Of a DNA stretch of 44,861 nt, positions 9,720-44,830 are shown piece after piece. How positions within the stretch are numbered: the stretch's first letter is position 1; each line of letters begins with the position of its first letter. The stretch comes from Micropepsaceae bacterium (GTDB lineage: Bacteria; Pseudomonadota; Alphaproteobacteria; Micropepsales; Micropepsaceae): positions 1 through 44,861 of the forward strand of contig DATARE010000591.1 of the NCBI GenBank assembly GCA_036264295.1, in the 5' to 3' direction. The translations under genes were made by a program, and so were the position numbers. Below the pieces are notes generated by a model that searched no databases, was not told the DNA's origin, and saw only the letters and a program-made list of their open reading frames with translations.

Positions 9720-10601
9720 TCACCAGAGAAGCGGGTCCGCAGTCATCGCATTCAGCCGTTCATTATGAGGACGGTAGAAATTCCGAAGCATCACGCGAGC
9801 ATCGGAATCGCTGCCGTCATAGCGGCCCACATTCTGCGGCTCCCAATCGATTCCGTCTTCGGGCGCCAACCCCAGAAACGCAAAGACGCGCTTCATCACA
9901 CCGGCGGGATCGGCGAACATGGTCTCGCTTTGGAGCACAAGCAGGTTCTGCGGTGAGAATTCCTTTTGCCAGCGCGCCACCGCCTCGTGATAGATGCCGC
10001 GCCTGACATAGATCGGCCGCGGCGTCGGCCCGGCGGGTTCGGGGCCGCTGCCGGCTTCAAACGCGAGTTCCGCCTCGCAGCGCTCCCGATCCATCTTCAT
10101 CGCCTCATCGAGAGTCCGCGTCTCGCGTCCCATGCGGCGCGCATGCCAATAGGCTGAGATTGCGCGGTCGACCGGATTGCGCAACAGCACGATGAATTTG
10201 CGGGTTTCGATATCGCTGGAGATGCGCTTGGGCACGTCGGCATCGAAAATATAGGTGGCCGTCGCCTCGAAGGTGTAATGGGGCCGCCCATGGCGGTCAT
10301 TCCGCCGCTCGATACTGGATCGCGCGGGAAAATTGCAGCCATACCAATCGAGCCCGCGATGATAGTGGCGGTCGAAATAATAGAGTTCCTTGAAGATCGG
10401 CCGCACAATCTGTGGATGCTGTTTCAGATAGGCGAACATGGAGCTGGTGCCGGATTTCTGCGCCCCGATCAGGATGAATCCCGGCATGGCCCGCGGCACG
10501 CGAGCGATGCGCCGGGCTTGGAACTGAGCACGGCGGCCGTGGACCGAAATGAAATCCCTCAAGGCGGACATGTGTTTTCCAGTTGCAAAGGATTGCCTCA
10601 T
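9720..10601 (-). CDS. PAPS-dependent sulfotransferase
   Basis: ORF 9720..10634 (-). 5'-PSB loop in FILIGAQKSGTSSMFAYL and 3'-PB motif in LLRNPVDRAISAYWH. ATG 10601..10599 overlaps the TpsA TGA 10600..10598 (ATGA). An alternative ATG lies at 10571. Confidence 0.85.
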   Translation of the reverse strand: MRQSFATGKHMSALRDFISVHGRRAQFQARRIARVPRAMPGFILIGAQKSGTSSMFAYLKQHPQIVRPIFKELYYFDRHYHRGLDWYGCNFPARSSIERRNDRHGRPHYTFEATATYIFDADVPKRISSDIETRKFIVLLRNPVDRAISAYWHARRMGRETRTLDEAMKMDRERCEAELAFEAGSGPEPAGPTPRPIYVRRGIYHEAVARWQKEFSPQNLLVLQSETMFADPAGVMKRVFAFLGLAPEDGIDWEPQNVGRYDGSDSDARVMLRNFYRPHNERLNAMTADPLLW

Positions 10602-13600
10602 TGGCCGCAGCGCACGCCCGCTTCGGGATCGCAATTGCCGAAGCCAAGCACTTCGACCGTAATCAGAGACGGCGCCGCCATCGGTGCTGCCGGTGCGTTG
10701 CGGTTCGATGCCGCCGCGACCGCGTCCGCCGCGGCTTGCGCCGCCTGCCCGCCGACCGAGCTGGTGCTTTCCAGTCCCGCGATGTCGACGGCCGCCGTTG
10801 GCACACCCGTCACCGTACCCACGGCTGCGATATTCGCAGCATTCAGAATGTGCAACGCGGCAATGCTAAGGTCACCGGATGAACGCAACCCCGCATCGCC
10901 GGCGTTCACCGTGCCGCGCGGCGCGATCAGGAAGGTGGACGCCGAAGGCGCATCCGGGGTCGATTGAATCGTGCCGATACCGGCGCCGGAAACCAGCCCG
11001 TTCAGATTGATGGTTTGCAGATCCTGCGGGTTGAACTGCACGGCCAGGGGTTTGAAATCCACTGTGGTCTTGGCGCCGCGCCCCGCATCGAGATCGCCGT
11101 TCGACGACCACAAAAGAACATCGCCACCCTGCACCGTCAGGATTCGGCTCTGATTGACCAGCACGCTGCCATCGGTGAACGCGCTGATCGCACCATTGTC
11201 GAGGCTAAGAATACCGACGGAACTGTTGGTGAGCTTCGTGTCGACTTCCACGGCTGTGGTGCCAACATCGATGCCGCCACCGGGCCCGATCAGCGAAACG
11301 GCGCCGCCGACAGTGACCTCGCTCGCCGTCCCCTCTGCGTTCTGGATGATTCCGGTCGCGCTCTGCAGAGTTTTGATCGTGCCATGAATCAGATCAAGAT
11401 TGCCCGTGGCCACCCGTTGCGCGGGCCCGGCGCCATTTGCGCCATTGTTCGTGTAACCCAGTGTCGAGGAAAACAGCGTATCGATCACCGCGTATCCAAT
11501 CTGATATTGCGCGGAACAACATCCGGCCGTATCGCCGGGCACGCGCAATTCGCTGAAGAACACACGATCGACAAAGGCGTGCTGAATGCCCTGCGAAAGC
11601 GTTTGGAAGGTCGCCCACGCTTGCGTGGTCGATTCGCGCGGGAAGCCGAGCGTCTGGAGGAAATCCACCAACGCCGGCAGATAGCTGCGCGCCGAACTCG
11701 CGGTATCCGGATTAATATAGGTGTCGATGACAGCCTGGTAGTTGGCTCCGTTCCCAACTCCGAAATCCGCGATAATATCCGCACCTTGCCGCGGCAACAG
11801 GAAATCGTTGGGGTCCCTTGCGAATTGCTCGCTGCCTGGGCCCAGGCTGGGGTTCTGGGCATCCAGCATCAGCCGGTTGCCGACCACCACATTGTTGCCG
11901 AAGGTGATGATACCGGTGCCCGTCGCGTTCGGGTTGTTGCTGATCGAATCCAGAATGTCGCCAGCGGGCGTGATGAAGGGACCGAGATTGCGGCCTGCCT
12001 CGATGTCGAAGAATCCCGGCCCCGCCAGGCTGAGCCCGCCGGCATTTCCGCCACTGCGGCCATAAAGCCCGGCGGCGAAAGCCGATTTCTGCCACGCGCC
12101 GGTGTAGAAAAGATCCCGCCCAGCGATGATTTGCGTCACGTCCGTCGCCGCAAGGTTCTGGCCGAAAAACGGCACGTCGATGATATCGCGGGCCGAGCGC
12201 ATAATGGCGGGCGTGTTGATTTCGAAGGCCAGCGGCGCCGCTTTGGCATCGATGGGCGATGCACCGGCGACGCCCGCTCCCGACACAATGTCCCCCGTCG
12301 CGGCATAGATCAGATCGGGCACCGGATCGTCCTGATGCAGCAGGATCGCGCCCAAATCCGGCACTGTGGCACCCTGAGGGAAAAATCCCGCGAGAGGCTG
12401 CACCGGGTCGAAGGTCTGTTCGACCAGCGAAGGGCCCGTGCTGATGGCTTCGGATGGGAACGACGTGCCGCCGCCCGCATGCGCATAAACCCGTACCGAG
12501 TCACCGGCGAGCAGGGTCAGCGTGCCCCGATCGGACGGCGCCAGCCTCAACGAATCGGCAACGCGCACATCCCCCAGCAATGCAATTGCCTCGAAATTCG
12601 CCGGATAGGCGCTCACGCCCAAATAGCCTTGCGGCACGCCGCCATTGTTTTCGAGGAAGACGATATTGTCGACGAGCGCATCGGCGTTGTAGAGCGAATT
12701 GGTTACGACCGTACCGGAGACGGACTCGAGAGTGACTTTGCTCGACGGGCCATAGCTTGAAACGAAAACGCCCGCCGACGGATCGAAGCTCGTATCGCCA
12801 ACGTTCTGCAGCGAGGTGCCGCTCACAACGCCTGCGATGTTGAGGGAACCGCGCGCGACTACCGCAATCGTACCCGTATCGACCGCGAGCACGGTCGAAA
12901 CATCGTTCGTGCTGCCGATGGTGGGGCCGGAAAGATCGGACGTGGCCCAATTTGCCTTGACCGAATTTCCGACCAGAATTTTTCCCGTCCCGCTGCCTTC
13001 GTAATAGGCGCCACTCAACAGATCGTGCCCGGCGATCACCGTCAAATCGCCACTTGCCTGCGCATGGAGCACGGGCAGCGTGATGGTGCCGTCCTCGCCA
13101 ATCAGGCCGCCGCTCACCCTGCCGATAGTGGGCAAGGATACGGACAATTGGCTGATGTCACGGCCGGCTTTGATCGTGGCGTTGCCACCCACGCTCATGA
13201 GGCCTTGATCGAAGCTGCCGAAATTGATCCACCACGCAGTCTGCGACGGAGTGAAGATATTTCCGCCCGTCGACACGTAAGCGGAAAGCGGCGAAAAGGC
13301 GCCGAATTCCGTGTCCGTCAGCGGCGTGCTCTGAACGAGCAGCCACGGCATGAAATATTGCTGATTGGGCACACGCCCGCTGCCGGCGTTTATTGCCGAC
13401 GCGACGGTGGGATGCTCATAGCCAAGAATATCCTGTTGCACCGTGACCGTCAGATCGCCTCCGTCCACCGGAAATGCGGCTGCGGTGAGCACGCCATACG
13501 GATTGCACAGATAGGTCGAGCCCGGATCGCAGGTCAGCACAAGCGGTGCAAGGAAACCATCGGGGTTGGTTGCAACGGGGATTTTTATCGTGTTTCCGGG

Positions 13601-22851: not shown

Positions 22852-22904
22852 CAAAAAAATCGCCGTATGCACGACCGATCCAGAAGGATGGTCGTGCACA
22901 CGGC
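22852..22904 (-). terminator. Rho-independent terminator downstream of the DING-family gene
   Basis: The minus strand reads gccgtgtgcacgacc-atccttctggatc-ggtcgtgcatacggc (15-bp stem with one G-U; the loop can extend the stem by 4 bp), followed by gaTTTTTTTgt. It starts 15 nt after the stop codon at 22920..22922. Confidence 0.8.
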
Positions 22905-22919
22905 GAGGCACGTGCGAGA

Positions 22920-24608: not shown

Positions 24609-25132
24609 GTCTATTTCCCCTTAATGGTTGATTCGAATACGGAAGCGAATTGCTCAAACACCACCGCCCAATTCATGCCGGGCACATCTGTCCAAGCGCT
24701 CGACGAGTTCTTCTCGGCGACGTCTCGATCATTGCTGCTCTTCCAACCACGCAATCGACATCCTGCTCGCACAACGAGAGTTGTGCGGATGCTTCTTCAA
24801 AACCGTCTTGAACGCCCCGCCGCCGGAAGAATGGTGGCAAATCATTGCAGCGCCTGAGAGCGAAACAACGATTGGCGCGGACTGTAGGAACCGTCGATGT
24901 TACTTTCGTGACGGATTTATTTTCGTGCGATGAAATCCATTGTCATGAATCTTCAGGATTCACGCGCATTCGTTCCATGCAGAGAACAAGCGGGGCAATC
25001 GACAAACACATTCTCGCCGAGCGGTTGAAAATGCCGTATTCACCGCGCTATACGAAGCTACGGTTTTCAGGCGAGAGGGATCAATTGCGCTGCGAGATTC
25101 AGACGTCCCCGGAGTCGGCTCCCTTTTCTCAT

Positions 25133-25585
25133 TTGCAGACCGCGAATGCGGCGTCGGCGTGGCCTCGCTCTCAAAAAGAACGCGGCTTCACTCTGATCGA
25201 ATTGCTGGTTGTGCTCGCGATTCTCGGTCTTCTCATCGGCTTCGTTGCGCCGGCGATGATTCGCCAACTCGGTTCGGCGAAGCACAAAGTCGCTGAGCAA
25301 TCGATCGAGCGGCTCGCCGGCATTCTCGACCTCTACCGGCTCGATGTCGGAAATTACCCGACGACCGAACAAGGTCTTGTCGGTTTAAGCGCCGCACCGT
25401 CCGGCGTTGCCGGCTGGGACGGCCCCTACATCAAAGACCCGAATGGGATCAAAGACCCCTGGGGCCGCGTGTTCGAATATCGCAGCCCGAGTCAGCGTAC
25501 CGGGCATGCTTTCGACATTGTTTCGCTTGGTGCCGATGGACGGCCCGGCGGTGACGGCGAGGACGCCGATCTCATCAATCGGTAG
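25133..25585 (+). CDS. gspG: Type II secretion major pseudopilin GspG
   Basis: ORF 24845..25585. Prepilin motif KERGFTLIELLVVLAILGLLIGFVAP, then the GspG body ...YRLDVGNYPTTEQGL..L......GWDGPYIK...DPWGR.FEYRSP......FDIVSLGADGRPGGDGEDADLIN. The in-frame TTG at 25133 gives a normal 18-aa leader and a 150-aa protein. ATGs at 24977 and 25031 would give implausibly long leaders. Confidence 0.9.
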   Translation: MQTANAASAWPRSQKERGFTLIELLVVLAILGLLIGFVAPAMIRQLGSAKHKVAEQSIERLAGILDLYRLDVGNYPTTEQGLVGLSAAPSGVAGWDGPYIKDPNGIKDPWGRVFEYRSPSQRTGHAFDIVSLGADGRPGGDGEDADLINR

Positions 25586-31031: not shown

Positions 31032-31114
31032 AAGCGCTTGCGATCATTTAGAGACGCATTGTGACAACAATATCATTCGGGCCTCTGTAGCGCCAATATA
31101 TGACAGTTCGGCGA

Positions 31115-32538: not shown

Positions 32539-33745
32539 TGAGGCTCAACATCGCCACCAGCAGCGATCCCACGATTCCTGCCACAACGAGCCCCATCACG
32601 ATGGTGATGATGGGCACCAACAGAGCCACGATGCGGTTGATCGTGTGGTGCACCTGTTCATCATGGATATCGGCGGCGCGCAACGCCATGTCCGCGAGCT
32701 TGCCGGTTTCTTCCCCCAGCCGAACGAGATGGATCGTCTGAACCGGAAAAAACTCGCCCACCGCAAGGGCGGTGCCCAGACGCGCGCCGGCCTTGACGTC
32801 GGAGGTGGCGCGCTCAACCAGCTTTGCCGCGGTAAGGTTTCCCAGCACGTCATGCGCGATGGCCAGCGCCGGCACCAATCCGACTCCGTTGCGCAGCAGC
32901 GTCCCAAGCGTGCGGGTGAGCCTTGCCGCCTGCACCCGCCGGATCAGCGGCCCCACGATAGGGATATGCAGAATCGCGCGCTCGGCGGCCATGCGCGCCG
33001 AGGGCTCACGCAACGCGCGAATGGCAACCAAGCCGATACCAAGAAAAGCGATGAGAATCAGCAATCCGTCGTCGCGCACAAAATCGCCGGCGCCGATGAG
33101 CACGCGCGTGGCCGTGGGCAATTGCGCGCCGGCCTGCGCGAAAATGGGCGTGAACTGCGGCAGGACATAGGTGAGGAGCAGCACAATAGTGCCCAACGCC
33201 GCCGTTATCAGAAGCGCAGGGTATACGAGCGCGGATTGCACGGATGCGGCCAGACGGCTCTCGCGCTCCAGAAGGTCGGCAAGATGGGCGAGGCTCTCCG
33301 CCAGCTTGCCGCCCGCCTCACCGGCACGCACCAGACTGACATAGAGACGTGAAAACACCTTTGGATGTTCGGCAAGGCTGACCGCCAAGGATTTTCCACC
33401 GCGCACTGAATCGCGCAGCGCCTGCAAAATGCGCGTGGCGCGTTTGCTGTCGCTGGTTTCTACCAGAAAGCGCAACGCGTGATCGATGTCCTGGCCGGCT
33501 TCCAGCATCACCGACAATTCACGGGTGAAGTGCGCGATCACCGTCTTTGGCAAACCGCGATAGAATTCGAGATCGGCGTTGAGGAATTCGGCGAAGCGGC
33601 CGCCCGTCCCGACTTCATCGGTGCGCAGCAGGAGATAGCTTTGGCGGTGGAGGCGATCTGCCACCGCCGCCGCATTCGCCGCCTCGATGACGCCGTTCAG
33701 GCGCTTGCCCGCCGTATCGACCGCGCTGTAACGAAACTTCGGCAC
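32522..33745 (-). CDS. gspF: Type II secretion inner-membrane platform protein GspF
   Basis: 407 aa with the duplicated T2SSF domain architecture and three TM segments. N-terminus MPKFRYSAVDTAGKRLNGVIEA is typical of GspF/PilC. Confidence 0.95.
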   Translation of the reverse strand: MPKFRYSAVDTAGKRLNGVIEAANAAAVADRLHRQSYLLLRTDEVGTGGRFAEFLNADLEFYRGLPKTVIAHFTRELSVMLEAGQDIDHALRFLVETSDSKRATRILQALRDSVRGGKSLAVSLAEHPKVFSRLYVSLVRAGEAGGKLAESLAHLADLLERESRLAASVQSALVYPALLITAALGTIVLLLTYVLPQFTPIFAQAGAQLPTATRVLIGAGDFVRDDGLLILIAFLGIGLVAIRALREPSARMAAERAILHIPIVGPLIRRVQAARLTRTLGTLLRNGVGLVPALAIAHDVLGNLTAAKLVERATSDVKAGARLGTALAVGEFFPVQTIHLVRLGEETGKLADMALRAADIHDEQVHHTINRIVALLVPIITIVMGLVVAGIVGSLLVAMLSLNDLAL

Positions 33746-33748
33746 GTT

Positions 33749-35485: not shown

Positions 35486-35516
35486 GGAATTGCCTCGATC
35501 TGTTGCGCGGTATCCG

Positions 35517-36482
35517 TCATGGTGCGCTTTCGAACATTTTCCGCAAGTCCGCTTCGTTGACTGCGACCGGATTCTTCTCGAGCAGCTTGGTCACATAGCC
35601 CTGTTGGCTGTCCTTGGATTTTCGCTGGCGCAGCATGACGGCAAGCGACTCTTTCACCTCGGCTAGCGGCCGCGGCGCTGCCGGTTTGGTGGCGACGAGG
35701 CGCACAATGTGCCAACCCGCGGCCGTTCGAATGGGGTCGCTGATCTCGCCCACAGCCATGCCCACGATTTCCTTGCGGATTTCCGGAGCAATCTGCTCAC
35801 TTGCTGCCCAGCCCAGATCGCCGCCTTGAGCTGCGCTGGATTTGTGCTCGGAGCGGGCCCGCGCGACATCCTCGAATTTGACATTCACGGCCTTTGCTTG
35901 GCGAGCCAGATCGTCGGCCTTTTTCTTTGCGGCTTCTTCTGTCTTCTTGTTTGCTCCTTTCGGAGAGGCGAAAAAGATCTGCGCCAAGCGAAACTGGCGC
36001 GGCGCCATGAAATTGTCGCGGTTCAGATCATAGGCGGTTTGGATATCGGCCGCCGACGGATAGTCCTTGGGAAGCGTCGAAACGGACGCAAGATAAGAAT
36101 TCACGATCACATCGTCGCGCGCGCGCTCGATCTGTCGCGCCACATCGGGGCGAAGCTGCCAATTCTTGGCGCGCGCCTCATTCAGCACGGCAATGCGTGC
36201 GAGCTCAAGACCGATCAGCTTGTTCATCGTTTGCGGATCAGCTATCGCCTTCTTGCGCAATTCCGGATCCAGCAGGCGAACGAAATTGGCCAAATCGGCG
36301 GCATGGAATTCGGTGCTGCCAAGACGCGCGATGACTGTAGGATCGCTATCGGCGGCCCTTGCCTGCGAAGCCCCAAAGCAGCAGGAGCATATGAATGCGC
36401 CAAGCAGACAGAGAATCGCCAGCTTGGCCGGATAAAACCATGGATCGGAGTGCCTTGCTTCCATGAGGCATTCCTTCATCAT
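35517..36482 (-). CDS. Periplasmic parvulin-type peptidyl-prolyl isomerase (PpiC/SurA-like)
   Basis: 321 aa with a signal peptide/anchor (LAILCLLGAFICSCCFGASQARA) and a SurA-N-like helical region. The PpiC domain reads SSAAQGGDLGWAASEQIAPEIRKEIVGMAVGEISDPIRTAAGWHIVRL. Confidence 0.85.
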   Translation of the reverse strand: MMKECLMEARHSDPWFYPAKLAILCLLGAFICSCCFGASQARAADSDPTVIARLGSTEFHAADLANFVRLLDPELRKKAIADPQTMNKLIGLELARIAVLNEARAKNWQLRPDVARQIERARDDVIVNSYLASVSTLPKDYPSAADIQTAYDLNRDNFMAPRQFRLAQIFFASPKGANKKTEEAAKKKADDLARQAKAVNVKFEDVARARSEHKSSAAQGGDLGWAASEQIAPEIRKEIVGMAVGEISDPIRTAAGWHIVRLVATKPAAPRPLAEVKESLAVMLRQRKSKDSQQGYVTKLLEKNPVAVNEADLRKMFESAP

Positions 36483-37192
36483 CCCGCCGGACGCGCAATC
36501 ATGTTGGCACGCAATTTGTCTTCGTAGTCCTGCATCAGGTTTTCGATCTCGACACGCTTCAGCTTCGTGAAAGGTTCTTTGGCGCCAAGGGCTCCAAACA
36601 CATCCTGCCGGCCGTAGACGTCGATGAGGTCCTTGCCGAATTTGTACAGCTCCGTGTTCTTGGCTTCACAGGCCGTAGCGCGGGTGCGCGTCTGCACCAG
36701 CAACTCGTCGAGCTTCTTGGCATCGTCGTCGCGCATGCGTGCCGCCGCAGCGGCCTCGTTATAGGAGGTTTGCCATTTCGCCAGATTGTCGCGATAGGCG
36801 GCTTCCATCGAAGCGAGCCCTTGTTTTTGCGCTTCGAGCTGAGCGGCGCTTTGTCTGGCGGCCGTCTGCAAAGCATCCTGGCCTGCCTTGAGCTGCTGAC
36901 GGAGCGCGTCGCGCTCTTTCTCCGCTGCGGCGAGTTGCTGTGTCAACGCCATGCGATCCCGTTCGGCTTCCGATTGTTTGGCGGTCAGCATCGCATTCTG
37001 GTCTTGCAGATCGCGAAGCTGCACGGTGGCGGACCGAAACGCGGCACGCAGCCGGGCCGCGCCATCGTCGCCTTCAGGCGCGGCAGCCGCCAATCCGCAA
37101 ATGCCGCACACCGCAATCGTCCCGGCCGCAAAAGCGCGGCGCCATTCAAAATTGCGCATGGACATCCACCCATAGCGTTTCGACATCGTCAC
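36479..37192 (-). CDS. Secreted coiled-coil protein of unknown function
   Basis: 237 aa. The GTG start overlaps the tonB TGA (GTGA) and the stop overlaps the PPIase ATG (ATGA). Signal peptide (AAGTIAVCGICGLAAAAP), then ~130 aa of heptad-like Q/A/E/L/R-rich sequence (LRDLQDQNAMLTAKQSEAERDRMALTQQLAAAEKERDALRQQLKAGQDALQ...) and a short globular end. Coding status is supported by the coupling and by sequence composition. Confidence 0.5.
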   Translation of the reverse strand: MTMSKRYGWMSMRNFEWRRAFAAGTIAVCGICGLAAAAPEGDDGAARLRAAFRSATVQLRDLQDQNAMLTAKQSEAERDRMALTQQLAAAEKERDALRQQLKAGQDALQTAARQSAAQLEAQKQGLASMEAAYRDNLAKWQTSYNEAAAAARMRDDDAKKLDELLVQTRTRATACEAKNTELYKFGKDLIDVYGRQDVFGALGAKEPFTKLKRVEIENLMQDYEDKLRANMIARPAG

Positions 37193-37893
37193 CCCACACC
37201 CGGCAAGGCGCCGACGCGCACGATCACGGGCTGCGGCATTTCCTTGGGCGGCGATTCCGGCAGCGGCGGCATGGTGCCGATGGCTTGTTCGATCAGCGTG
37301 TCAATCTGCGTATCGCCGGTCGTGCGCAGCACCTGAACTTTGTCCACCTTGCCAATCGAGGACAGCCACACGCGGATTGTGGCGCGGAACTTGTTGGAGT
37401 TCAGTTTTTCGTCGTCGCGCAAGCGCTTGCTGATCTGATCCTGCATCAGCGAAGCGTAATGGCCAAAGCCATTGCCGCCGGTCCCGCCTCCGCCTCCGCC
37501 AATCGTCTGACCGAGCTGCAGCGCCTGGCCCCCCGGCTTGGCGCCAAGGCCGAAGGCATCGCTCCCGGCGCTGCCCTGCGCGTCCAGCGCAAGCGGGGCA
37601 TCGGGCGGCGGTGCGTCGTCTTTGGGTTTGTCATCCGGCGTGGGTGGCGGCTCGATCTTCTGCTCCACCATTTTGGGCGGCGGTGGCGGCGGTTCTTCCT
37701 TGGGCGGCGGCGGTGGCGGCGGCGGGACCAGCTTCAACGCCATCACTTCGGCGACACGCTTTTTCGGACCGGCATCGCCATTGACCACGCGATAAACGCC
37801 ATAGCTCGCGGCGAGGAAGACGAGCACAACCGCGCTTGCGACCATATAGCGGCGCCATTTTTCGCCGCTTTTGGATTCCGGCTCCAGCATCAT
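37189..37893 (-). CDS. tonB: TonB-family energy transducer
   Basis: 234 aa with an N-terminal TM (YMVASAVVLVFLAASYGVY), the Pro-rich spacer PPPPPPPPKEEPPPPPPKMVEQKIEPPPTPDDKPKDDAPPPDAP, and a TonB_C-like end (RATIRVWLSSIGKVDKVQVLRTTGDTQIDTLIEQAI). Confidence 0.8.
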   Translation of the reverse strand: MMLEPESKSGEKWRRYMVASAVVLVFLAASYGVYRVVNGDAGPKKRVAEVMALKLVPPPPPPPPKEEPPPPPPKMVEQKIEPPPTPDDKPKDDAPPPDAPLALDAQGSAGSDAFGLGAKPGGQALQLGQTIGGGGGGTGGNGFGHYASLMQDQISKRLRDDEKLNSNKFRATIRVWLSSIGKVDKVQVLRTTGDTQIDTLIEQAIGTMPPLPESPPKEMPQPVIVRVGALPGVG

Positions 37894-38294
37894 TTCACGA
37901 GTCTCTGCGTCACGAGTCCCAACTGCGTGATGTCGTGCCTGCCCATCATCGCCAGCACGTCGATGACCACCTTATATTGCACGTCGCCGTCGCCCTTGAT
38001 GACATAAGGCGTTTCCGGATCGACCGATTTCTGCTGCACCAGCCGCTGCTCCAGCTCGTCCATCGTGACGGGATAGGTATCGAGAAAAATTTTCCCGTCA
38101 TTGGTGATGGTGATGGCCTTGGTTTTCGGCTTGGCGAGACTGGGTGTGTCGCTCGCCTTGGGCAGATTGACCTTGATGCCCTGAACCGAGGCCGTCGTCA
38201 TGATGATAAAGATAACAAGCAGCACATAGGCCAGATCGAGCATCGGCGTGACGTTGATGTCGTCATAGGCTTTGGCGTCGGCTTGGGCTTTCAT
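37890..38294 (-). CDS. exbD: ExbD/TolR biopolymer transport protein
   Basis: ORF 37890..38351. ATG 38294 lies 4 nt after the exbB stop. INVTPMLDLAYVLLVIFIIMTT and the periplasmic domain are typical of ExbD. Confidence 0.9.
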   Translation of the reverse strand: MKAQADAKAYDDINVTPMLDLAYVLLVIFIIMTTASVQGIKVNLPKASDTPSLAKPKTKAITITNDGKIFLDTYPVTMDELEQRLVQQKSVDPETPYVIKGDGDVQYKVVIDVLAMMGRHDITQLGLVTQRLVK

Positions 38295-38298
38295 GGCG

Positions 38299-40128
38299 TC
38301 ATTCCGCCGCCAAGCGCGGCGCCTCAGCCTCCGGCGAATAGACCTCGGCAAGGCGCGTGACGAATTCGTCGATAAAGGCGTGCAGTTCGGTGGTCACGTC
38401 TTTGATGCGCGTGATCAAATAATTGTAGCCGAACAGCGCCGGAATCGCGACTGCAAGACCGGCAACGGTGGCCACAAGCGCCGCTGCAATTCCCGGCGCG
38501 ATGGCGTTGATGTTCACGTCTCCGCTCGCAGCAATCGCGGCAAAGGTAATCATCACGCCCACAACGGTGCCGAGCAGACCCAGAAACGGTCCGCCCGAGA
38601 TCGCAATCGTCAGCAGCACCATCATCGAGTTCAGGCGTTGCCCTTCATAGGCGGCAATCCGATCGAGATTGGCGCGAATGGTGGCAATGGCTTGCGGCGT
38701 CAGCACCTTTGGCCCATGGGGGGCCGTTCCGAAACGCCGCTGGAGCTCGGCCTGCCCCGCATCGCAAATGCGATACAGCACAGAATTGCCGATCCCGCGG
38801 GTTTTGCTGTTGGCAAGCTCGGCCGCCAGCCGCATCGGATCGCCGCCGGCCCGCGTGAAGATTTCGAGGAACCGCGAATTGGCACCCGCCACCTTGGCGA
38901 TGTAACGGGCCTTGCTCACCATCACGATGACGCTGATGGCCGCCATCACCATCAGAATGCCAATCACGACCCAGCCATCGATCGTCACCGAGCGCAGGAT
39001 CACGCCAAAATAACCGCCGCTCCAGCCGGCGTTTTCTTCATCCTGGCCATAGGCGATCATGGGGCCGTTTTCGGCCTGGCTCGCATAGGCAGCGGAAATG
39101 AACGAGGCGCTGCGGGCGGTCTTGGCCAGCTCAAGTTCGTCAAGATCGCCGGCAAATCCATTGCCAACGGCCGTTGCGGCGCGAGCTGCCTGTCCCGCGG
39201 GGGCGGGCGCAGGCATCACGTTGTCGCCGCCGACCGAACCCGCCCCGGCCAGAGCAGGCAAACTCGCTGCAATCGTGGCGGCCTGCTTGCCATCGACATA
39301 CAACGTCAACCGGTCCGATACCGAAACCGCGATCTGGTGCCAGGTTGCCGGCGAAATCGGCGCAGCTGCCGCAGCCCGTGCAGTATTCGCGCCGTTGACG
39401 ACGCTTGCATAGGGCGTGCCCTGGTCGATTCCGATGACGAGCGCATTCGCGCCGTCGCGTTTGGCGAACAGAACCGATTGCGTCTGAACCGCATCGGGCT
39501 TCACCCATGCCGACCAGGTGAAGCCGCCGCCCGGCGCGATGGCCAGCGATGGCGATGCCGGCAAGGCCAGTGGATTGGTGCCGTCGAAATGGATGCCACG
39601 GCCGATGATCGACGTGTCGACCGACTTCACGGGTGCCTGTGCCGCGTTGTTGTAAGCCGTCTGATCGCGCGGCGCCGCATTGGGCTCGCCGAAATGATAG
39701 ACCAGCGTCGTATCGTTGTCGTAGGTGCCGCGCGGATCGGCCCCAGCCGGCGCTTTGGTGTTGCCGTAATAGAGATAGATTTCTGTCGTGCCGCCCGCTT
39801 TGACGGCAGGCACATCCACCCAGACCAGCGCGATGCCGAGCAAACCGTCATAGGTATCGATGTGGAATTTCAGCGGCGTCTTGTCGTCGCCGGCGACAAA
39901 GCGAAGGTCGCTGCCATCGTCCTTGGCATCGCTGAACTTGAAATTGCCGTCATGCAGCCGAACCAGAACAGGCGCCCGCGCCAGATCTTCGGCAATACCG
40001 CCGCCCTGCGGTCCGCCATTCAGCGTGATCTTCTTGCGATAAGACCAATCATCGCTCCACCAGGCTTTGGCGCTGTGCGGAACCAGAAGCGCGGCCAAGA
40101 CAAGCAGGCAAAGCATTCGTCTGAACAT
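38299..40128 (-). CDS. exbB: DUF2341 + LamG (concanavalin-like) periplasmic module fused to a MotA/TolQ/ExbB proton channel
   Basis: ORF 38299..40179. ATG 40128 has GAGG 6 nt upstream. Signal peptide MFRRMLCLLVLAALLVPHSAKA. DUF2341 pattern WWSDDWSYRKKITLN...APVLVRLH...GSDLRFV...ALVWVDVP...IYLYYGN. LamG-like block FTWSAWVKPD...WHQIAVSV..RLTLYVDGK. The C-terminal ~230 aa carry 3 TM and the ExbB signature (GPFLGLLGTVVGVMITF...IAPGIAAALVATVAGLAVAIPAL). Confidence 0.85.
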   Translation of the reverse strand: MFRRMLCLLVLAALLVPHSAKAWWSDDWSYRKKITLNGGPQGGGIAEDLARAPVLVRLHDGNFKFSDAKDDGSDLRFVAGDDKTPLKFHIDTYDGLLGIALVWVDVPAVKAGGTTEIYLYYGNTKAPAGADPRGTYDNDTTLVYHFGEPNAAPRDQTAYNNAAQAPVKSVDTSIIGRGIHFDGTNPLALPASPSLAIAPGGGFTWSAWVKPDAVQTQSVLFAKRDGANALVIGIDQGTPYASVVNGANTARAAAAAPISPATWHQIAVSVSDRLTLYVDGKQAATIAASLPALAGAGSVGGDNVMPAPAPAGQAARAATAVGNGFAGDLDELELAKTARSASFISAAYASQAENGPMIAYGQDEENAGWSGGYFGVILRSVTIDGWVVIGILMVMAAISVIVMVSKARYIAKVAGANSRFLEIFTRAGGDPMRLAAELANSKTRGIGNSVLYRICDAGQAELQRRFGTAPHGPKVLTPQAIATIRANLDRIAAYEGQRLNSMMVLLTIAISGGPFLGLLGTVVGVMITFAAIAASGDVNINAIAPGIAAALVATVAGLAVAIPALFGYNYLITRIKDVTTELHAFIDEFVTRLAEVYSPEAEAPRLAAE

Positions 40129-40163
40129 GGGTAGCCTCAGCTGTGATCCGGCCGTCGTCATCG

Positions 40164-41900
40164 CTAAAACCCCGACCAAAGGCGAAAATGGACACGCGTT
40201 TCACTCATCCGGGTCACGGCTCCATCAACCATAGCCACGGCCACATCGGCGGCGCCGTTGAGGCTGTCGAAGGCGCTGAACCGTGCACCTATGCCCGCGC
40301 TGGCCAGCGAGAACGAACGCTTCTCGCTGGGCAGCGGCTGATGAATCCAGAGCGCACCGCCATCCACGAAAGTGAGGAAATGCAAATCGGTCACGGCGGA
40401 CGACACCGCCTTTCCGAACGAGGGCGTGCGGAATTCAATGGTTCCCATGGTGCCGTAATCGCCAAGCCGCTCGGCTTCCAGGTAACCGCGTACGCTGTTG
40501 GCGCCGCCGGCGCTCAATTGCTCGCTGCTGAGCAAGGGATCGTTCGTCATCTGTGCCTGAATGCGCCCGAAGATGCTGTAGCCATTGCCCATCGGTTGCT
40601 GCCGGCTGACATCGAACTTGGCGTAGACATATTGCCGAAGGGCGCCGAACCGTTGGGTATCGAGTTTTTCGCTGTCGCTTCCTGCAGGCAGCGCGAAATT
40701 GAGTGAACCGCCCGCTTTGGTAATGAGATCGCCGTCCTGCCATGTCGCCGAATAGGCGAGCGATGCGGGATAATACAGAACCGTCGAATTTGCCGGCGTG
40801 CCCGAAGTGATCACGTTCTGGGTGAGATTCTTGCGGTCGATGCCGACCGTGAACGAGTGATAGAAATTCTCACTGGCGGGCAGATTCACGATGCCGCGCA
40901 GGCCGAAGATCGTACCCCGGCCCACCACATCGGTGCCGGCAAGCGCTGCCACATCGCTGTCGGATTTCACGCCATAGGCGAGCACGCTCAGCGGCGTGCC
41001 TTCCACCGGCCACAGATAGTTCGCGGAATAGACCTGCGCGTCCGACGTCTTCTGAGGCGCCACCTGATAGGACAGGCTGAGACTGTGGCCTTCCTGCCAG
41101 AGGTTGTCGTAGCTGACCGTGCCGGCAACGCGCAAAGGCTCGGTTTTTTGATTGTACTGATTGTTGATTTCGATATTGCCGTGCACCGGCAGCTTGTCTT
41201 CGACTTCGAGATCGACATCCACGGTGCCCGGCGCCTGGCCTGCCTTCAGGCGCGGCGTCACCTTCAGATCGGGCTGGCGGTTGAGCGCGACAATGTCGTT
41301 TTGCACCGCAGTGCTGTTGGTCACGGTGCCTTCGGCAAGGGAAGGCGCGGTTTCCCGGATGCCGGTCAGCGAGTGGAATTTGGATCCGACCACGCGCAAG
41401 CGCCCGACAGGATTTTCCACCACCTGCAGATGGATGACGGTGCTTTCGACACCCTGTTCGGGAATGAGCACCTGAACCGTCTGAAAGCCGCGCATCTGAT
41501 AGGTTTTTTCGAGCGCCTCGCGGGCCATATCGACATCGGTGGCATTTCTCTGCTCGCCGAGAAACGGATAAACCGCTTCTTCAATGGCGGGCGTATCCAG
41601 CACGGTGTTGCCGTCCACGACATATTCGAAGATGTCGAAGCGCTGCGCCGCCTGATTGGGATTCGCGTCATTCTGGGCAGCAGGCTGGGCGGCAGGCGCG
41701 ACCATTCCCGCCTGCCCCGAAGCGGCAGATGCATTCTGCGCCATCGCCGAAGGCGCGCCGGCACAAAGCCCCGCGCCCAGCGCGATCATGAGCCGCTGCA
41801 CAATTGCCGATGCGTAAGACAAAACCCCTCCACCCCGGAAAGGCCAAACAGGCTGTTCCGGTGCGTCTACCTTTTGCGTATTCAATTCGGGAAGGCTCAC
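40164..41900 (-). CDS. TpsB outer-membrane transporter (ShlB/FhaC/HecB family, Omp85 superfamily)
   Basis: 578-aa ORF from GTG 41900. A more likely start is GTG 41825 or 41801, which gives the signal peptide (M)QRLMIALGAGLCAGAPSAMA. POTRA region FDIFEYVVDGNTVL...VYPFLGE...DVDMAREALEKTYQMRGFQTVQVLIPEQ...VIHLQVVENPVGRLRV, and a 16-strand-type barrel with GGANSVRGY and a terminal aromatic (LWSGF). Confidence 0.9.
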   Translation of the reverse strand: MSLPELNTQKVDAPEQPVWPFRGGGVLSYASAIVQRLMIALGAGLCAGAPSAMAQNASAASGQAGMVAPAAQPAAQNDANPNQAAQRFDIFEYVVDGNTVLDTPAIEEAVYPFLGEQRNATDVDMAREALEKTYQMRGFQTVQVLIPEQGVESTVIHLQVVENPVGRLRVVGSKFHSLTGIRETAPSLAEGTVTNSTAVQNDIVALNRQPDLKVTPRLKAGQAPGTVDVDLEVEDKLPVHGNIEINNQYNQKTEPLRVAGTVSYDNLWQEGHSLSLSYQVAPQKTSDAQVYSANYLWPVEGTPLSVLAYGVKSDSDVAALAGTDVVGRGTIFGLRGIVNLPASENFYHSFTVGIDRKNLTQNVITSGTPANSTVLYYPASLAYSATWQDGDLITKAGGSLNFALPAGSDSEKLDTQRFGALRQYVYAKFDVSRQQPMGNGYSIFGRIQAQMTNDPLLSSEQLSAGGANSVRGYLEAERLGDYGTMGTIEFRTPSFGKAVSSAVTDLHFLTFVDGGALWIHQPLPSEKRSFSLASAGIGARFSAFDSLNGAADVAVAMVDGAVTRMSETRVHFRLWSGF

Positions 41901-41901
41901 C

Positions 41902-41923
41902 GATGGACCGCGCGCCGTCCATC
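41902..41923. repeat. Near-perfect 22-bp palindrome in the tpsB upstream region
   Basis: gatggaccgcgcgccgtccatc equals its reverse complement at 20 of 22 positions (7-bp perfect arms GATGGAC/GTCCATC). It lies between a Pho-box-like repeat (41932..41949) and the probable tpsB start. It could be an operator or a 5'-UTR stem-loop. Confidence 0.4.
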
Positions 41924-41999
41924 CCGGTTCTATTTACATTCTGTTACACTTATATGTCGCCGCACCGCATCCAGCGATTCCGTCCACCGGAAAATCAAC

Positions 42000-42356
42000 T
42001 CAGCGCGACGGCGGGCCACCGACGGGATTGACGAAAGTACGGGCCGGCGGACGCTGCGGTACCGGAGATACGCCATAGGCATTGCCCATATGCTCCCGGG
42101 CGGCGGCATCGTTGAACGTGCCCACCTGGTTGGATGACGAGTGCGCGTCAATAGGTGCGGCGATTTGCGGCGTGCTGCGCTCGTGCTCGACCCGGCGCTG
42201 CATCTCGTCATTGAGACAATTGAGATAGGCCGTGCGGTCATTGCCGATCTGCACGTCCACGCAAGGTCGTTTGTCATTGGAAGCCGGCGCATCGGCACCT
42301 TGCGCCTGCGCCGCAATCAAGAGGGTTGCAACTATCGCAAAGGGTGCAAAACGCAT
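42000..42356 (-). CDS. Small secreted protein, unknown function (118 aa)
   Basis: ORF 42000..42368. ATG 42356 lies 4 nt after the gspO stop. Clean Sec signal MRFAPFAIVATLLIAAQAQGA. The mature part has one Cys pair (KRPCVDVQIGNDRTAYLNCLN) and a Pro-rich tail. No family recognised. Confidence 0.45.
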   Translation of the reverse strand: MRFAPFAIVATLLIAAQAQGADAPASNDKRPCVDVQIGNDRTAYLNCLNDEMQRRVEHERSTPQIAAPIDAHSSSNQVGTFNDAAAREHMGNAYGVSPVPQRPPARTFVNPVGGPPSR

Positions 42357-42360
42357 CGCA

Positions 42361-43113
42361 TCACCCAATTGTCAGCGGCCCATAGAGCCACACGATCCAC
42401 GTGCTAAGACAAAGGAAAGTCCCAAATGGCACGCGGTTCGTTAAAGACAGTGTACCACCGCGCGTTCGCTCGACCAAAGCAAAGGCAAGACCGGCCAGGG
42501 CGCCGATCAGGATCACGCTGGGCAGGCCATTCCATGACAGCCAGGCGCCGCTCGCTGCCAGAAGCTTGGCGTCGCCCAGCCCCATGCCCTCGCGCCGGCG
42601 CCAGTGCCAATAGACATAGCGAAGTGCCACGACAAAGCCGTAGGCCAGGACGGCACCAATCACATTGGGCAACAGCGCCGGTGGATTGAGAATCCACGCC
42701 ACCAACAGCCCTGCCGGAACGAGCGGCAATGTCAGGAAATCCGGAAGCAGGAAATATTTGAGATCGGTTGTGGCGAGCGCCAGAAGCGCCCAACCGAAAC
42801 CGCAGCTCACCCACAGAAGCCCGTCCGAAAACAAGGAGGCGGACCACAGCGCGATGCCAAGAGCGCCCAGTTCAATCAGCGGATAGAAGGCACCGATGGG
42901 TTGCGTGCAAAAGCGGCAGCGTCCACGCAGAAGCACCCAACTCATGACGGGTACGAGGTCGCCTGCGGCAATGCGTGTTCCGCAGCAGGCGCAAACCGAA
43001 CGGCCGAACACGATGGCGCGCGGGGATTCGACCCGGGTCACGATCACGCCGAGAAAGCTGCCGATGAAAGGGGCCAAAAGAACCGGCCAAATCCAGGAGC
43101 CGAGCCCGATCAA
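42361..43113 (-). CDS. gspO: Prepilin peptidase / N-methyltransferase (A24 family, GspO/PilD)
   Basis: ORF 42361..43443, but the first ~110 codons are Arg-rich and overlap the GT4 gene. TTG 43113..43111 overlaps the GT4 TGA (TTGA) and yields (M)IGLGSWIWPVLLAPFIGSFLGVIVTR. It has the Zn-finger DiS-P-DiS motif CACCG...CRFC and the catalytic Asp motif GMGLGDAKLLAASGAWL. Confidence 0.85.
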   Translation of the reverse strand: MIGLGSWIWPVLLAPFIGSFLGVIVTRVESPRAIVFGRSVCACCGTRIAAGDLVPVMSWVLLRGRCRFCTQPIGAFYPLIELGALGIALWSASLFSDGLLWVSCGFGWALLALATTDLKYFLLPDFLTLPLVPAGLLVAWILNPPALLPNVIGAVLAYGFVVALRYVYWHWRRREGMGLGDAKLLAASGAWLSWNGLPSVILIGALAGLAFALVERTRGGTLSLTNRVPFGTFLCLSTWIVWLYGPLTIG

Positions 43114-44330
43114 TTCCGTTCCGCTCCCTGCCCCGCGGCCGGCTGCAATGTCGCGCCACGCCGAAGACGCTGATTGCGGCGGGCGGCATGAACATCCCTC
43201 GCGCCGTCCAACGCCCGGGCCAGCCGTGCCGCATTGGCCGAAAGGCTGTATTCGGTTTCGAAAATGACACGAGCGACCGCCGAATCTTGCGCAGCTTTCG
43301 CGGGATTGTCGAGCACGTCGTGAACCGCGGCGCGAAAGGCGCGCGCGGTGTCGGCAACATGAAACGTGCCGCCATGAACGATGCCTTCGCAGCCTTTTGA
43401 CGTGCTCACGACCGGCGTACGAGTCGCCATGGCCTCCACGCATTTGAGCCGGGTGCCACCGCCCTGCCAGAGCGGTACGATCGCACAGCGCGATCCCCCC
43501 ATCTCGCTCAACAAATCGTCACGCGCCCCCAACCCGGTAATTCCCGGCACGTCGGAAAATTCCGCAACCGCGCGATCCGACAATTTGCCCGCGACGCAGA
43601 GAGCCGTGCGCGCGTTCAGGCTTTCATCCCAGACATGGCGCACGAACCAGCGCAAGCCTTCGACATTCTGAAAATTTCCGAAGCTGCCGGTCATGATGAT
43701 GCGGTTTTCGCACGCCCTATCTCGATACACGTCCGGGATATCGACGAAATTCGGCACCATGTGCAAACGGCCAGCATCGAGGAATCGCGCATAGGCGCGG
43801 CGGTCTTCCTCCGAGACGCAGAGCACCGCATCGGCAGAACCGAAAAACAGCCTCTCATGCATCAATTCCAACCCGTGGCGCAGATGAATGGCAGCCCTGG
43901 CTGAGAGCGAGTCCTTCTTCACCTGGGCGGTGAGAGCCGATTCCAAATTGTGGGTACCCAAGATGATCGGAACATCCAGTTCTCGCAAGGCCGCGATCTG
44001 TGCACCCATAAAGCCGTAATCCAGCACGATGGCGCTGAACGGTTCGGCCCGATGCAATGCTTTCACCTGTTCGACGAATTTTCCATGCTTGCGAAAATAA
44101 ACGCTCGCAGATTGCCGCAGACGCGGCCACGCGAATGGGATGGGACGGAAGCGGACATCCTCGCGATTCTGCGCGGCCATATCCACATTTTCGTGATTTC
44201 CGACGATCGCTTCAATCTTAAAACCGAGCGCGCGAAAACCGGCGATCAGGTTCAAGGCGCGAATACGTTCCCCGGAATGCGGCGGAAACGGGCTGATATA
44301 GCTGGCATAAAGGATCGTTCCCGCGAACAC
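43110..44330 (-). CDS. Glycosyltransferase, GT-B fold, family 4
   Basis: 406 aa. N-terminus ILYASYISPFPPHSGERIRALNLI and a C-terminal nucleotide-sugar binding half (PLWQGGGTRLKCVEAMATRTPVVSTSKGCEGI). Confidence 0.8.
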   Translation of the reverse strand: MFAGTILYASYISPFPPHSGERIRALNLIAGFRALGFKIEAIVGNHENVDMAAQNREDVRFRPIPFAWPRLRQSASVYFRKHGKFVEQVKALHRAEPFSAIVLDYGFMGAQIAALRELDVPIILGTHNLESALTAQVKKDSLSARAAIHLRHGLELMHERLFFGSADAVLCVSEEDRRAYARFLDAGRLHMVPNFVDIPDVYRDRACENRIIMTGSFGNFQNVEGLRWFVRHVWDESLNARTALCVAGKLSDRAVAEFSDVPGITGLGARDDLLSEMGGSRCAIVPLWQGGGTRLKCVEAMATRTPVVSTSKGCEGIVHGGTFHVADTARAFRAAVHDVLDNPAKAAQDSAVARVIFETEYSLSANAARLARALDGARDVHAARRNQRLRRGATLQPAAGQGAERN

Positions 44331-44335
44331 GGGCG

Positions 44336-44830
44336 CTACGCCGCGGCCGCTTGGGCGCGCGCGGGCTTTTCATCTGGCGGATTCATGGTGCGTGAAACGA
44401 AGGGTAGCGCGATCAGCACCGCAAGCACGACCCCCGCCATGTTCGCCAGGACATCGGTCAGACTGCCATGTCGCCCAGGAATGAAATTTTGCGCCATTTC
44501 AAGCGCCGAGAGGAGCACCCCGAAACCCAGCGAGGCGCGGAGAAATGTTTCCATCAGGGGATGCGAGCTCCTCGACCGGCGAAACAGGACCGGTCCGAAC
44601 GCCATGGCAAAGCCAAGCGCCGCGGCAAAACACAGAGCCGGCTGATAGGAATCCGCCCCCACCTTGTCAGCACCGAACCAGGCACCCGGAACGAGAAATT
44701 GCACGATCAACAACATCAGGCCCAGACAGGCCCAGACGCGCGCCCAGTTTTTGGATAGCGGCCGTAACAGCCGCTTCAGCCATGACGCAAATTCCAAAAT
44801 CGGATTCAGCAGCGGAAACAGGCCGGCCAA
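44336..44830 (-). CDS. VanZ-like family membrane protein
   Basis: 164 aa with 4 TM. VanZ signature in ALEMAQNFIPGRHGSLTDVLANMAGVVLAVLI (E..Q.f.pgR..s..Dvl.N..G). Confidence 0.6.
   Translation of the reverse strand: MAGLFPLLNPILEFASWLKRLLRPLSKNWARVWACLGLMLLIVQFLVPGAWFGADKVGADSYQPALCFAAALGFAMAFGPVLFRRSRSSHPLMETFLRASLGFGVLLSALEMAQNFIPGRHGSLTDVLANMAGVVLAVLIALPFVSRTMNPPDEKPARAQAAAA

Follow-up and report, generated by a model that had tools for sequence, protein, structure and literature searches.

Type V secretion, two-partner secretion (TPS) included, is taught as needing no external energy (PMC5422565), yet one class of the TPS outer-membrane transporter, TpsB, is encoded immediately beside genes for a Ton/Tol-like proton motor in at least 590 species from several phyla. 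This association has been visible in Pseudomonas aeruginosa since 2009 and is still unexplained. Here we describe an example from a soil alphaproteobacterium, a block of 34 kb found on a contig of 44,861 nucleotides from a Micropepsaceae bacterium (GCA_036264295.1, DATARE010000591.1; the whole contig is referred to below as the window), in which genes for a TPS pair, a proton motor, a parvulin and a type II secretion system (T2SS) lie together. The island type is known but unexplained, and the window is a variant of it, with an embedded T2SS and without the Porin_5 and YbjN genes. According to the reading that we prefer, to which we would give a probability of about 60%, the window is an alphaproteobacterial member of this island type and holds two units that are co-transcribed or co-regulated, neither of which requires the other, the motor serving TPS and the T2SS exporting an adjacent PstS-like protein.

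The closest described system is an island of P. aeruginosa, under PUMA3/VreI-PhoB control, that comprises the hxc T2SS, LapA, PdtA, PhdA, PdtB, ExbB2, ExbD2 and TonB4, along with PA0696, a putative porin, PA0697, PA0698, of the YbjN family, PA0699, a PpiC peptidyl-prolyl isomerase (PPIase), and PA0701, a LysR protein (PMC7035377). LapA is a substrate of Hxc, and PdtA is secreted with PdtB as its outer-membrane partner (cited in PMC7035377). PdtA itself is placed under unknown function in a review of TPS (PMC5422565). The promoter PphdA drives phdA-pdtB-exbB2D2-tonB4-PA0696-0701 as a single transcript and pdtA has a promoter of its own, both requiring PhoB and sigma-VreI (PMC4971064). Homologues of vreAIR associated with TPS, ExbBD and PA0696 homologues were described by Llamas et al. 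in 2009 for P. fluorescens, P. entomophila, B. vietnamiensis, R. palustris and Janthinobacterium, and Hxc-like T2SS genes were already noted nearby in P. fluorescens and B. vietnamiensis (PMC2729926). As to the channel protein of the motor, DUF2341 is one of the N-terminal appendages of ExbB-like proteins that a 2025 survey of MotAB relatives names as unexplained (PMC12505986). An earlier interpretation of the window, made by a model from its letters and open reading frames (ORFs) and called here the sequence-only reading, was right about the P. aeruginosa parts list and its PhoB/VreI regulon (PMC7035377, PMC2729926), and also in saying that the role of the TonB system had not been worked out, as this system was termed uncharacterised as late as 2020 (PMC7035377). 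Its implication that the recurrence of the combination was new does not hold, the recurrence having been reported by Llamas et al. (PMC2729926).

We compared the window with the P. aeruginosa island through the published descriptions of its genes and through a Pseudomonas-like locus on a Klebsiella plasmid. By gene descriptions, the two islands share a giant TpsA, a TpsB with ExbB, ExbD and TonB directly after it, a signal-peptide protein and a PpiC-type PPIase. The window also has a complete T2SS and a secreted PBP_like_2 protein next to these, and the two are possible counterparts of the adjacent Hxc T2SS and its exoprotein of the PstS/DING superfamily. The TpsB, ExbB and ExbD proteins of the window are 39-48% identical to those of the Klebsiella locus and the coiled-coil protein is 26% identical, the latter clustering in 74 loci with the gene that occupies the PA0697 position. 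A further likeness is that pdtB to PA0701 form one transcript and that the window has an array that is operon-like judging by its sequence. The differences are as follows. The window lacks Porin_5 (PA0696 type), YbjN (PA0698 type) and phdA, and no vreAIR-type genes are present in its sequence. Its T2SS genes are positioned between the PPIase and the cargo/TpsA genes, as part of the same co-directional array, it possesses extra genes for a glycosyltransferase of the GT4 family, a VanZ-like protein and a prepilin peptidase at the head of the block, and its PstS-like protein, at 562 aa, is a long form.

The TPS-motor core across genomes

The name ExbB* is used here for the ExbB-type channel with an N-terminal extension made of DUF2341 and Laminin_G_3. 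An ExbB* alignment scanned against one genome per GTDB species gave at least 590 confirmed loci, spread over Alpha-, Beta- and Gammaproteobacteria, Verrucomicrobiota and Anaeromyxobacter. The best 80 loci come from Alphaproteobacteria (Bradyrhizobium, Methylocella, Methylosinus, Rhizomicrobium, Hyphomicrobium, Magnetospirillum), Betaproteobacteria (Burkholderia, Paraburkholderia, Trinickia) and Gammaproteobacteria (Dyella, Rhodanobacter, Steroidobacter, Solimonas), and they also include Verrucomicrobiota and a metagenome-assembled genome (MAG) of Anaeromyxobacter. The top match to the ExbB* of the window, at 83% identity, is from a Micropepsaceae MAG, whose contig (L003) keeps the gene order of the window from VanZ through GspI.

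Neighbourhoods were counted in 82 loci with ±10 kb flanks, by tblastn with the window proteins and by all-against-all clustering of ORFs. ExbD is encoded in all 82 loci and TpsB in 78; the coiled-coil protein and a Porin_5 barrel of about 600 aa are each found in 74, and a TonB-like protein in 71-75. Other genes are present in fewer loci: the parvulin in 49-50, the small secreted protein (cluster 11) in 45, a YbjN protein (cluster 13, Pfam YbjN) in 36, an extracytoplasmic function (ECF) sigma factor in 35, a FecR-type anti-sigma factor in 34 and a VreA-like STN protein in 25. The commonest order is [VreA-ECF-FecR]-TpsB-ExbB*-ExbD-TonB-Porin_5-coiled-coil-[PPIase]-[YbjN]-...-TpsA, and the core can be written as TpsB-ExbB*-ExbD-TonB-(Porin_5)-coiled-coil-(parvulin)-(small protein) plus a TpsA of the DUF3739 type. 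In 69 loci the stop codon of tpsB lies at a median of 125 nt before the codons for the mature N-terminus of ExbB*, a space that fits the ExbB* signal peptide only, and therefore the two genes abut. The partner TpsA proteins of other loci are conserved in their C-terminal DUF3739 region (29-67% identity). Among 72,556 plasmids, ExbB* is encoded on 12 and the C-terminus of a DUF3739-type TpsA on 16, and both are found on 11 of these. Together with the neighbourhood counts, this overlap rules out a chance neighbourhood, and the argument of the sequence-only reading that the genes are not chance neighbours is thus sustained: the combination is found far beyond this genome and Pseudomonas. We conclude that TpsB/TpsA and the ExbB*-ExbD-TonB-coiled-coil set form an invariant partnership. 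By Pfam lists, neither the window nor the conserved module has a gene for a Plug-containing or TonB-dependent receptor.

Plasmid-borne copies of the module deserve a separate mention. One example is pKqq_SB98_1 of Klebsiella quasipneumoniae (NZ_CP084804.1, 112703-154472; L088), a conjugative IncFIB plasmid with a complete module, comprising genes for two giant FHA-family proteins, VreA-like/ECF/FecR proteins, TpsB, ExbB*, ExbD, TonB, the porin, the coiled-coil protein, YbjN, PPIase and LysR, next to IS26 and arsenic-resistance genes. As the module is complete and the plasmid conjugative, the system is mobile among enterobacteria. Another example is a plasmid of Methylomagnum ishizawai (L091, 11602-22293), on which an ExbB*-ExbD-TonB set is present without an adjacent TpsB; two alkaline phosphatase genes, one of them for PhoX, are found within 10 kb, and an FHA-family gene is about 17 kb away.

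The type II secretion system and the PstS-like protein

The T2SS core set of the window is represented by family matches for E, F, G, H, K, L, M, D and O, by N_methyl matches only for I and J, and by a weak match for C. Within the ±10 kb flanks, T2SS core genes are found in seven other loci (L003, L005, L008, L025, L045, L047 and L052), a count that underestimates the linkage, because in Burkholderia gspF and gspG are located 11-13 kb from ExbB*, and because in Methylosinus and in the 4.72-Mb relative the T2SS lies beyond a 12-kb tpsA. In the latter genome, a block encoding GspE to GspK, gspG, a PstS-like protein and TpsA lies beyond an inverted tpsA, with the T2SS about 20 kb from ExbB*; in Methylosinus pMSC49a, the T2SS and a long PstS-like gene are likewise found beyond tpsA; and in Burkholderia, gspF, gspG and a PstS-like gene are 11-16 kb from ExbB*. 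Ten plasmid or chromid loci with the TPS-linked module were examined over ±20 kb or more. Six have a T2SS nearby (Methylosinus, Cupriavidus USMAA2-4, B. stagnalis, B. arboris, Ralstonia and Aquabacterium), and four have none within ±20 kb (Klebsiella pKqq_SB98_1, two Variovorax and Cupriavidus campinensis). Overall, a T2SS together with a PstS-like gene is found beside the module in Micropepsaceae-like relatives, Rhodospirillales, Aliidongia, Bradyrhizobium, Methylosinus, Cupriavidus, Burkholderia, Ralstonia and Aquabacterium, to which Pseudomonas is added from the literature (PMC2729926).

The gene sub-order of the window T2SS recurs in L083, L084, L087 and L045, and the inverted position of gspG is common to the window, L045, L083 and L084, while lineages differ in where the T2SS lies, how it is oriented, how far away it is and how its genes are ordered. 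The T2SS is, we conclude, a facultative partner of the core, joining it repeatedly but not always, and the island thereby falls into two clear parts, of which only the core is invariant. The clade of the window is one that builds the T2SS and its probable PstS-like cargo into the same array.

These observations bear directly on the proposal of the sequence-only reading, that all of the genes specify one fused, multi-envelope export machine, in which T2SS, TPS, motor, coiled-coil protein and parvulin would each be needed for the export of both TpsA and the PstS-like protein. Such integration would agree with the tight, co-directional placement of the T2SS genes directly after the parvulin gene in the window, L003 and L087, with the presence of T2SS genes beside the module in many independent lineages, and with the DUF2341 domain of ExbB* being reported in PilY-type pilus-associated adhesins (PMC4858521), but it is hard to reconcile with complete modules that have no T2SS within ±20 kb, in Klebsiella, two Variovorax and C. 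campinensis, with the varying side, orientation, distance and gene order of the T2SS, with the remote T2SS beyond the inverted tpsA of the 4.72-Mb relative, and with the separate transcription of gspG. We consider it distinctly improbable; what is invariant is the partnership of TpsB/TpsA with the motor and coiled-coil set, to which the T2SS is a facultative addition. Much less probable still is a motor acting on the T2SS pseudopilus, with the DUF2341-LamG part binding pseudopilins and the proton-motive force (PMF) assisting the T2SS. The occurrence of DUF2341 not only in PilY-type adhesins but also in archaeal type IV pilus loci (PMC4858521), and the position of the window T2SS immediately downstream of the motor genes, are what would speak for it; against this, nearly all ExbB* loci have TpsB but in most of them no T2SS gene lies within 10 kb, and complete plasmid-borne modules exist without a T2SS.

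In the preferred reading, the 562-aa PstS-like protein is the probable cargo of the T2SS, by analogy with LapA as the cargo of Hxc. Searched against PDB, this protein matches PstS (5e-15) and DING/HPBP (about 1e-10) to a similar degree and is much longer than either. It is one of a small clade of long PstS-like proteins, with some 33 close homologues. Its gene adjoins gspG and is upstream of TpsA in L083 and L084, and relatives of it adjoin T2SS genes in Burkholderia, Ralstonia and Methylosinus. The name DING exoprotein, given to it in the sequence-only reading, is over-specific, and the assignment is better kept at the level of the superfamily: PstS scores better than DING, and no source names a homologue DING. 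The DING proteins are PstS-like, of about 40 kDa, with an N-terminal DINGGG motif, and the window protein, of 562 aa, falls outside this description. When the N-terminal piece of the protein was compared with PDB as a test for the DING motif, no match was obtained. Its mature N-terminus, which we take by eye to read IYGGGSTL, does resemble DINGGGATL. A different candidate cargo is suggested by a Cupriavidus sp. USMAA2-4 plasmid (L094, 8350-10455), in which a gene for a 701-aa DNA/RNA non-specific endonuclease is found inside a T2SS cluster that adjoins a PPIase-TpsB-ExbB* module; a secreted endonuclease would fit nutrient or phosphorus scavenging.

The motor and its possible targets

The motor proteins of the window retain conserved residues of the proton path: the GLLGTV motif and the Thr of the third transmembrane (TM) helix of ExbB* are invariant in the alignment, and the transmembrane Asp of ExbD is kept (MLDLAYV), so that the motor looks functional from its sequence. 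The TolQ model gives ExbB* a higher score than the ExbB models do, but every curated cut-off (NCBIfam equivalogs) is missed. Its periplasmic DUF2341 and LamG extension amounts to about 400 aa; the AlphaFold2 (AF2) model, built from an alignment of 12 sequences, is weak (pLDDT 63), with predicted periplasmic jelly-rolls of which only the LamG part is confident. In Foldseek the best match was the laminin LG4-5 tandem, followed by generic LG, pentraxin and toxin-binding jelly-rolls, and no specific ligand clue was obtained for the LamG part. The TonB-like protein consists of an N-terminal TM helix, a Pro-rich spacer with a run of eight prolines, a Gly-rich stretch and a C-terminal TonB_2 domain. 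In the coiled-coil protein, a signal or anchor helix at the N-terminus is followed by a single helix of about 155 residues, modelled by AF2 with pLDDT >90 and about 23 nm long, which, if the model is right, would be enough to cross the periplasm. Searches of PDB and Pfam with the profile of this family returned only coiled-coil noise, and the published "colicin-like" remark on PA0697 was not reproduced with it.

How this set compares with better known machines may be considered next. With the Ton/Tol motors it shares the channel Thr residues of the MotA_ExbB domain, the ExbD Asp, the Pro-rich spacer and the TonB_2 domain, but it differs from them in the long DUF2341 and LamG extension of ExbB*, in the anchor helix of the TonB-like protein, which has no His, and in the absence from the module of a TonB-dependent transporter and of a Pal/TolB partner. 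Another comparison is with the Agl-Glt machinery of Myxococcus, in which a TolQR-like motor and the TonB-like GltG/J act on barrels of the outer membrane, and these in turn control a surface adhesin. The two may work by a similar logic, in that a motor, TonB-like transducers, barrels other than TonB-dependent transporters and a large surface adhesin are found in both, but the homology shown is that of the motor families and no Glt-specific components are present; the TonB-like protein has a weak match to GltJ (E 0.004, residues 11-100), at the TM-proximal end running into the Pro-rich spacer. With classical TPS systems, such as Bordetella FHA/FhaC, the window shares the TPS domain of TpsA, with an NPNGI motif in its translation, and the POTRA_2 and ShlB domains of TpsB. 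The differences are that classical TPS is held to be independent of external energy, while TpsB of the window type is coupled to PMF-motor genes in hundreds of species, that this TpsB has no conserved segment corresponding to the N-terminal helix of FhaC, and that TpsA ends in DUF3739. In Bordetella pertussis, the parvulin Par27 binds unfolded FHA, and the parvulin gene present in the same operon-like array of the window fits a similar chaperone role.

Porin_5, whose gene is located between those for TonB and the coiled-coil protein in 74 of the 82 related loci, has no homologue in the window. It is also absent in L003 and L078 and is kept in L087 and L052. The YbjN gene, present in 36 loci, is absent as well. 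No ECF, FecR or STN/VreA genes are found in the window, whose end lies 31 nt past VanZ, nor are such genes found near the module in L086 or L087. A substitution of the T2SS for the missing Porin_5 was considered and rejected, as L087 possesses the same embedded T2SS together with Porin_5, and L052 also has both. Since L087, a metagenomic relative, has exactly the embedded layout of the window and keeps Porin_5, the loss of Porin_5 is lineage-specific rather than a replacement by the T2SS. A variant that has the motor but neither the porin nor visible signalling genes narrows what the motor can act on, and its retention argues against a motor that serves only the porin or VreA, with the proviso that a porin could be encoded elsewhere in the genome.

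This matters for an explanation by which the motor has nothing to do with TpsA export and instead energises nutrient uptake through Porin_5 (of a phosphorus source, for example) or signalling through a VreA-type STN protein, the TPS genes being merely co-regulated. The Porin_5 gene does follow TonB in most loci, about 25-35 loci have VreA-like, ECF and FecR genes ahead of TpsB, phosphatase genes flank the TpsB-less ExbB* of the Methylomagnum plasmid, a gene for a secreted nuclease is part of the linked Cupriavidus T2SS cluster, and the P. aeruginosa locus belongs to a phosphate-starvation regulon (PMC7035377, PMC4971064). On the other hand, the window and L003 keep the motor and the coiled-coil protein with neither Porin_5 nor VreA/ECF/FecR in the available sequence, L078 is also without Porin_5, the gene abutting ExbB* is nearly everywhere TpsB and not Porin_5, and Porin_5, whose proteins in other loci have a conserved N-terminal periplasmic segment (VRVPYIPE region), is not, by Pfam lists, a Plug-containing TonB-dependent transporter. 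On balance we regard this explanation as unlikely.

A dedicated motor for the TPS unit remains the best-supported reading. In such a scheme, TpsB would move the giant DUF3739-type TpsA across the outer membrane, the periplasmic parvulin would keep this 4040-aa protein export-competent, and the PMF motor made of ExbB*, ExbD and the TonB-like protein would, from its place in the inner membrane, act on the part of the TPS pathway that lies at the outer membrane, assisted by the periplasm-spanning coiled-coil protein and the small secreted protein. The target of the motor would be the Porin_5 barrel in most genomes, and here either TpsB/TpsA directly or a porin encoded elsewhere; by acting on it, the motor would gate, pull, anchor or release TpsA. 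The T2SS would export the adjacent PstS-like protein, following the precedent of Hxc and LapA, and the two units would travel together as parts of one physiological programme, which in Pseudomonas is that of phosphate starvation.

A number of points weigh against this scheme. No energy source powers type V translocation according to the TPS review, and liposome reconstitution has been done (PMC5422565). Transposon mutants of P. aeruginosa in tonB4 and PA0696 were unchanged in zebrafish virulence, a readout other than secretion (PMC2729926), and our literature search found no paper testing a role of the motor in secretion. The window is without Porin_5, which is the likeliest target of TonB in other genomes. 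No conserved segment is present in TpsB between the signal peptide and POTRA1, hence no candidate for a TonB box. Canonical TonB and TolA have an SHLS anchor motif, and its His is missing from the anchor helix of the TonB-like protein. As to the T2SS unit, the cargo role of the PstS-like protein is argued by analogy only; PstS-like genes also occur beside modules without a T2SS within 10 kb (L001, L029, L042, L059), and one homologue is found in an unrelated context (L085). A search of the window for E. coli-type Pho boxes identified none and was uninformative, giving four matches with three mismatches versus 2.4 expected, none of them intergenic.

A bolder possibility may be suggested tentatively, with the odds as we see them against it: that the TPS subclass with DUF3739-type TpsA is not energy-independent, a PMF motor of the 5:2 type and a coiled-coil strut coupling energy to the export, anchoring or release of TpsA. 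The Porin_5-less Micropepsaceae variant would then show the motor acting without a porin. If TpsA handling is indeed powered or controlled by the motor, the accepted view of how type Vb secretion is energised would have to be revised, and the DUF2341-ExbB proteins would gain a function. Whether some TPS systems are motor-driven is an interesting question, and one that can be tested in existing model organisms.

Gene order, junctions and a candidate regulatory site

The features of the block are collected in Table 1. ORF listing and Pfam matches confirm the gene content and order given in the sequence-only reading, and its description of 20 coding sequences between 44830 and 25575, all on the minus strand with small gaps, was borne out, the largest gap being about 100 nt. 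Of the six 4-nt overlaps that it listed, those of GT4/gspO, exbD/tonB, coiled-coil/PPIase, gspL/gspM and gspD/gspK stand, while the GTGA overlap of tonB and the coiled-coil gene is doubtful, because both the gene callers and the closest relative start the coiled-coil protein about nine codons later; these two genes either overlap or are at most about 23 nt apart. The exbD/tonB and coiled-coil/PPIase overlaps read ATGA, and the GT4 stop overlaps the gspO start as TTGA. With realistic starts, the gap between TpsB and ExbB* is 2 nt and that between ExbB* and ExbD is 4 nt. No convincing intergenic terminator was found inside 25575-44830, and the arrangement of this region is operon-like as far as sequence can tell. 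The GC content is uniform over the window (0.56-0.63).

Table 1. Genes and other features of the T2SS-TPS-motor block in the window
Feature	Position	Strand	Family match or remark
VanZ-like membrane protein	44336..44830	-	Pfam VanZ 2.8e-7; head of block
GT4-family glycosyltransferase	43110..44330	-	Pfam Glyco_trans_1_4, Glyco_transf_4
Prepilin peptidase GspO/PilD, 250 aa from TTG start	42361..43113	-	Pfam A24_N_bact, Peptidase_A24
Small secreted protein, 122 aa	42000..42368	-	signal peptide, two conserved Cys; no Pfam family
TpsB outer-membrane transporter (type Vb)	40164..41900	-	Pfam POTRA_2, ShlB
ExbB* proton channel, ExbB/TolQ-type	38299..40161	-	Pfam DUF2341, Laminin_G_3, MotA_ExbB
ExbD/TolR-type motor subunit	37890..38294	-	Pfam ExbD 1.5e-27
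TonB-like energy transducer	37189..37893	-	Pfam TonB_2, 32.5 bits
Coiled-coil protein, secreted or anchored	36479..37192	-	no Pfam family; probable start 37165, 228 aa
Periplasmic parvulin-type PPIase, SurA/PpiD-like	35517..36482	-	Pfam Rotamase 5.7e-24
gspE	33749-35485	-	Pfam family match
gspF	32522-33745	-	Pfam family match
gspH	32077-32538	-	Pfam family match
gspI	31683-32099	-	Pfam N_methyl only
gspJ	31115-31696	-	Pfam N_methyl only
gspL	29988-31031	-	Pfam PilN/PilM-like
gspM	29428-29991	-	Pfam T2SSM_b
gspC-like	28776-29414	-	weak: NCBIfam GspC_delta 30 bits vs cut-off 150
gspD	26567-28768	-	Pfam family match
gspK	25575-26570	-	Pfam family match
gspG, major pseudopilin	25134..25585	+	Pfam T2SSG 1e-32, N_methyl
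Conserved 19-nt motif TCCGTCACGAAAGTAACAT	24897..24915	-	gspG/PstS-like divergent region
PstS-superfamily secreted protein, 562 aa	22920..24608	-	Pfam PBP_like_2
Intrinsic terminator between PstS-like gene and tpsA	22862..22910	-	15-bp stem then TTTTTTT
TpsA, 4040 aa	10598..22720	-	Pfam TPS 4e-20 (N-terminal), DUF3739 1.6e-32 (C-terminal)

At the head of the block, the VanZ-like and GT4 genes are lineage-specific additions, L003 being the only one of the related loci to have either. The TTG start of gspO (43113) is the same in L003, and the gene has the same position in L087. For the small secreted protein, a 128-aa ORF at 41930-42316 was considered as an alternative and rejected as an Arg-rich wrong frame, the frame given in the table being the one conserved in L003; the two Cys of the protein are invariant.

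At the other end, gspG, a gene of the plus strand, and gspK are convergent, their 3' ends overlapping by 11 nt at 25575-25585 (in L083 they are 27 nt apart), and gspG is therefore outside the long operon. Of what the sequence-only reading placed beyond the block, gspG, a divergent exoprotein gene of the PstS family, a strong terminator and the 4040-aa TpsA are all present, and only the DING label falls. The terminator is real, with a 15-bp stem and a run of seven T. The gspG and PstS-like genes diverge from a region of 525 bp (24608-25134), which contains the motif TCCGTCACGAAAGTAACAT. Its core positions, unlike the flanks, do not vary between the window, L083 and L084, and they are conserved although the two relatives share only 37-46% protein identity; the motif occurs once in the window versus 0.01 expected. 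It may be the site of a regulator, being a candidate distinct from the E. coli-type Pho box.

Further left, several long ORFs without a family are found in the region 1-9700. A sulfotransferase ORF (9720-10634 region) on the same strand as tpsA has, when read from its longest start, a 37-nt overlap with the tpsA stop, and genes of polysaccharide type follow beyond it, encoding a Wzz/AAA protein (5871-8237), a GT4 protein (1755-3125) and a radical SAM protein (730-1935).

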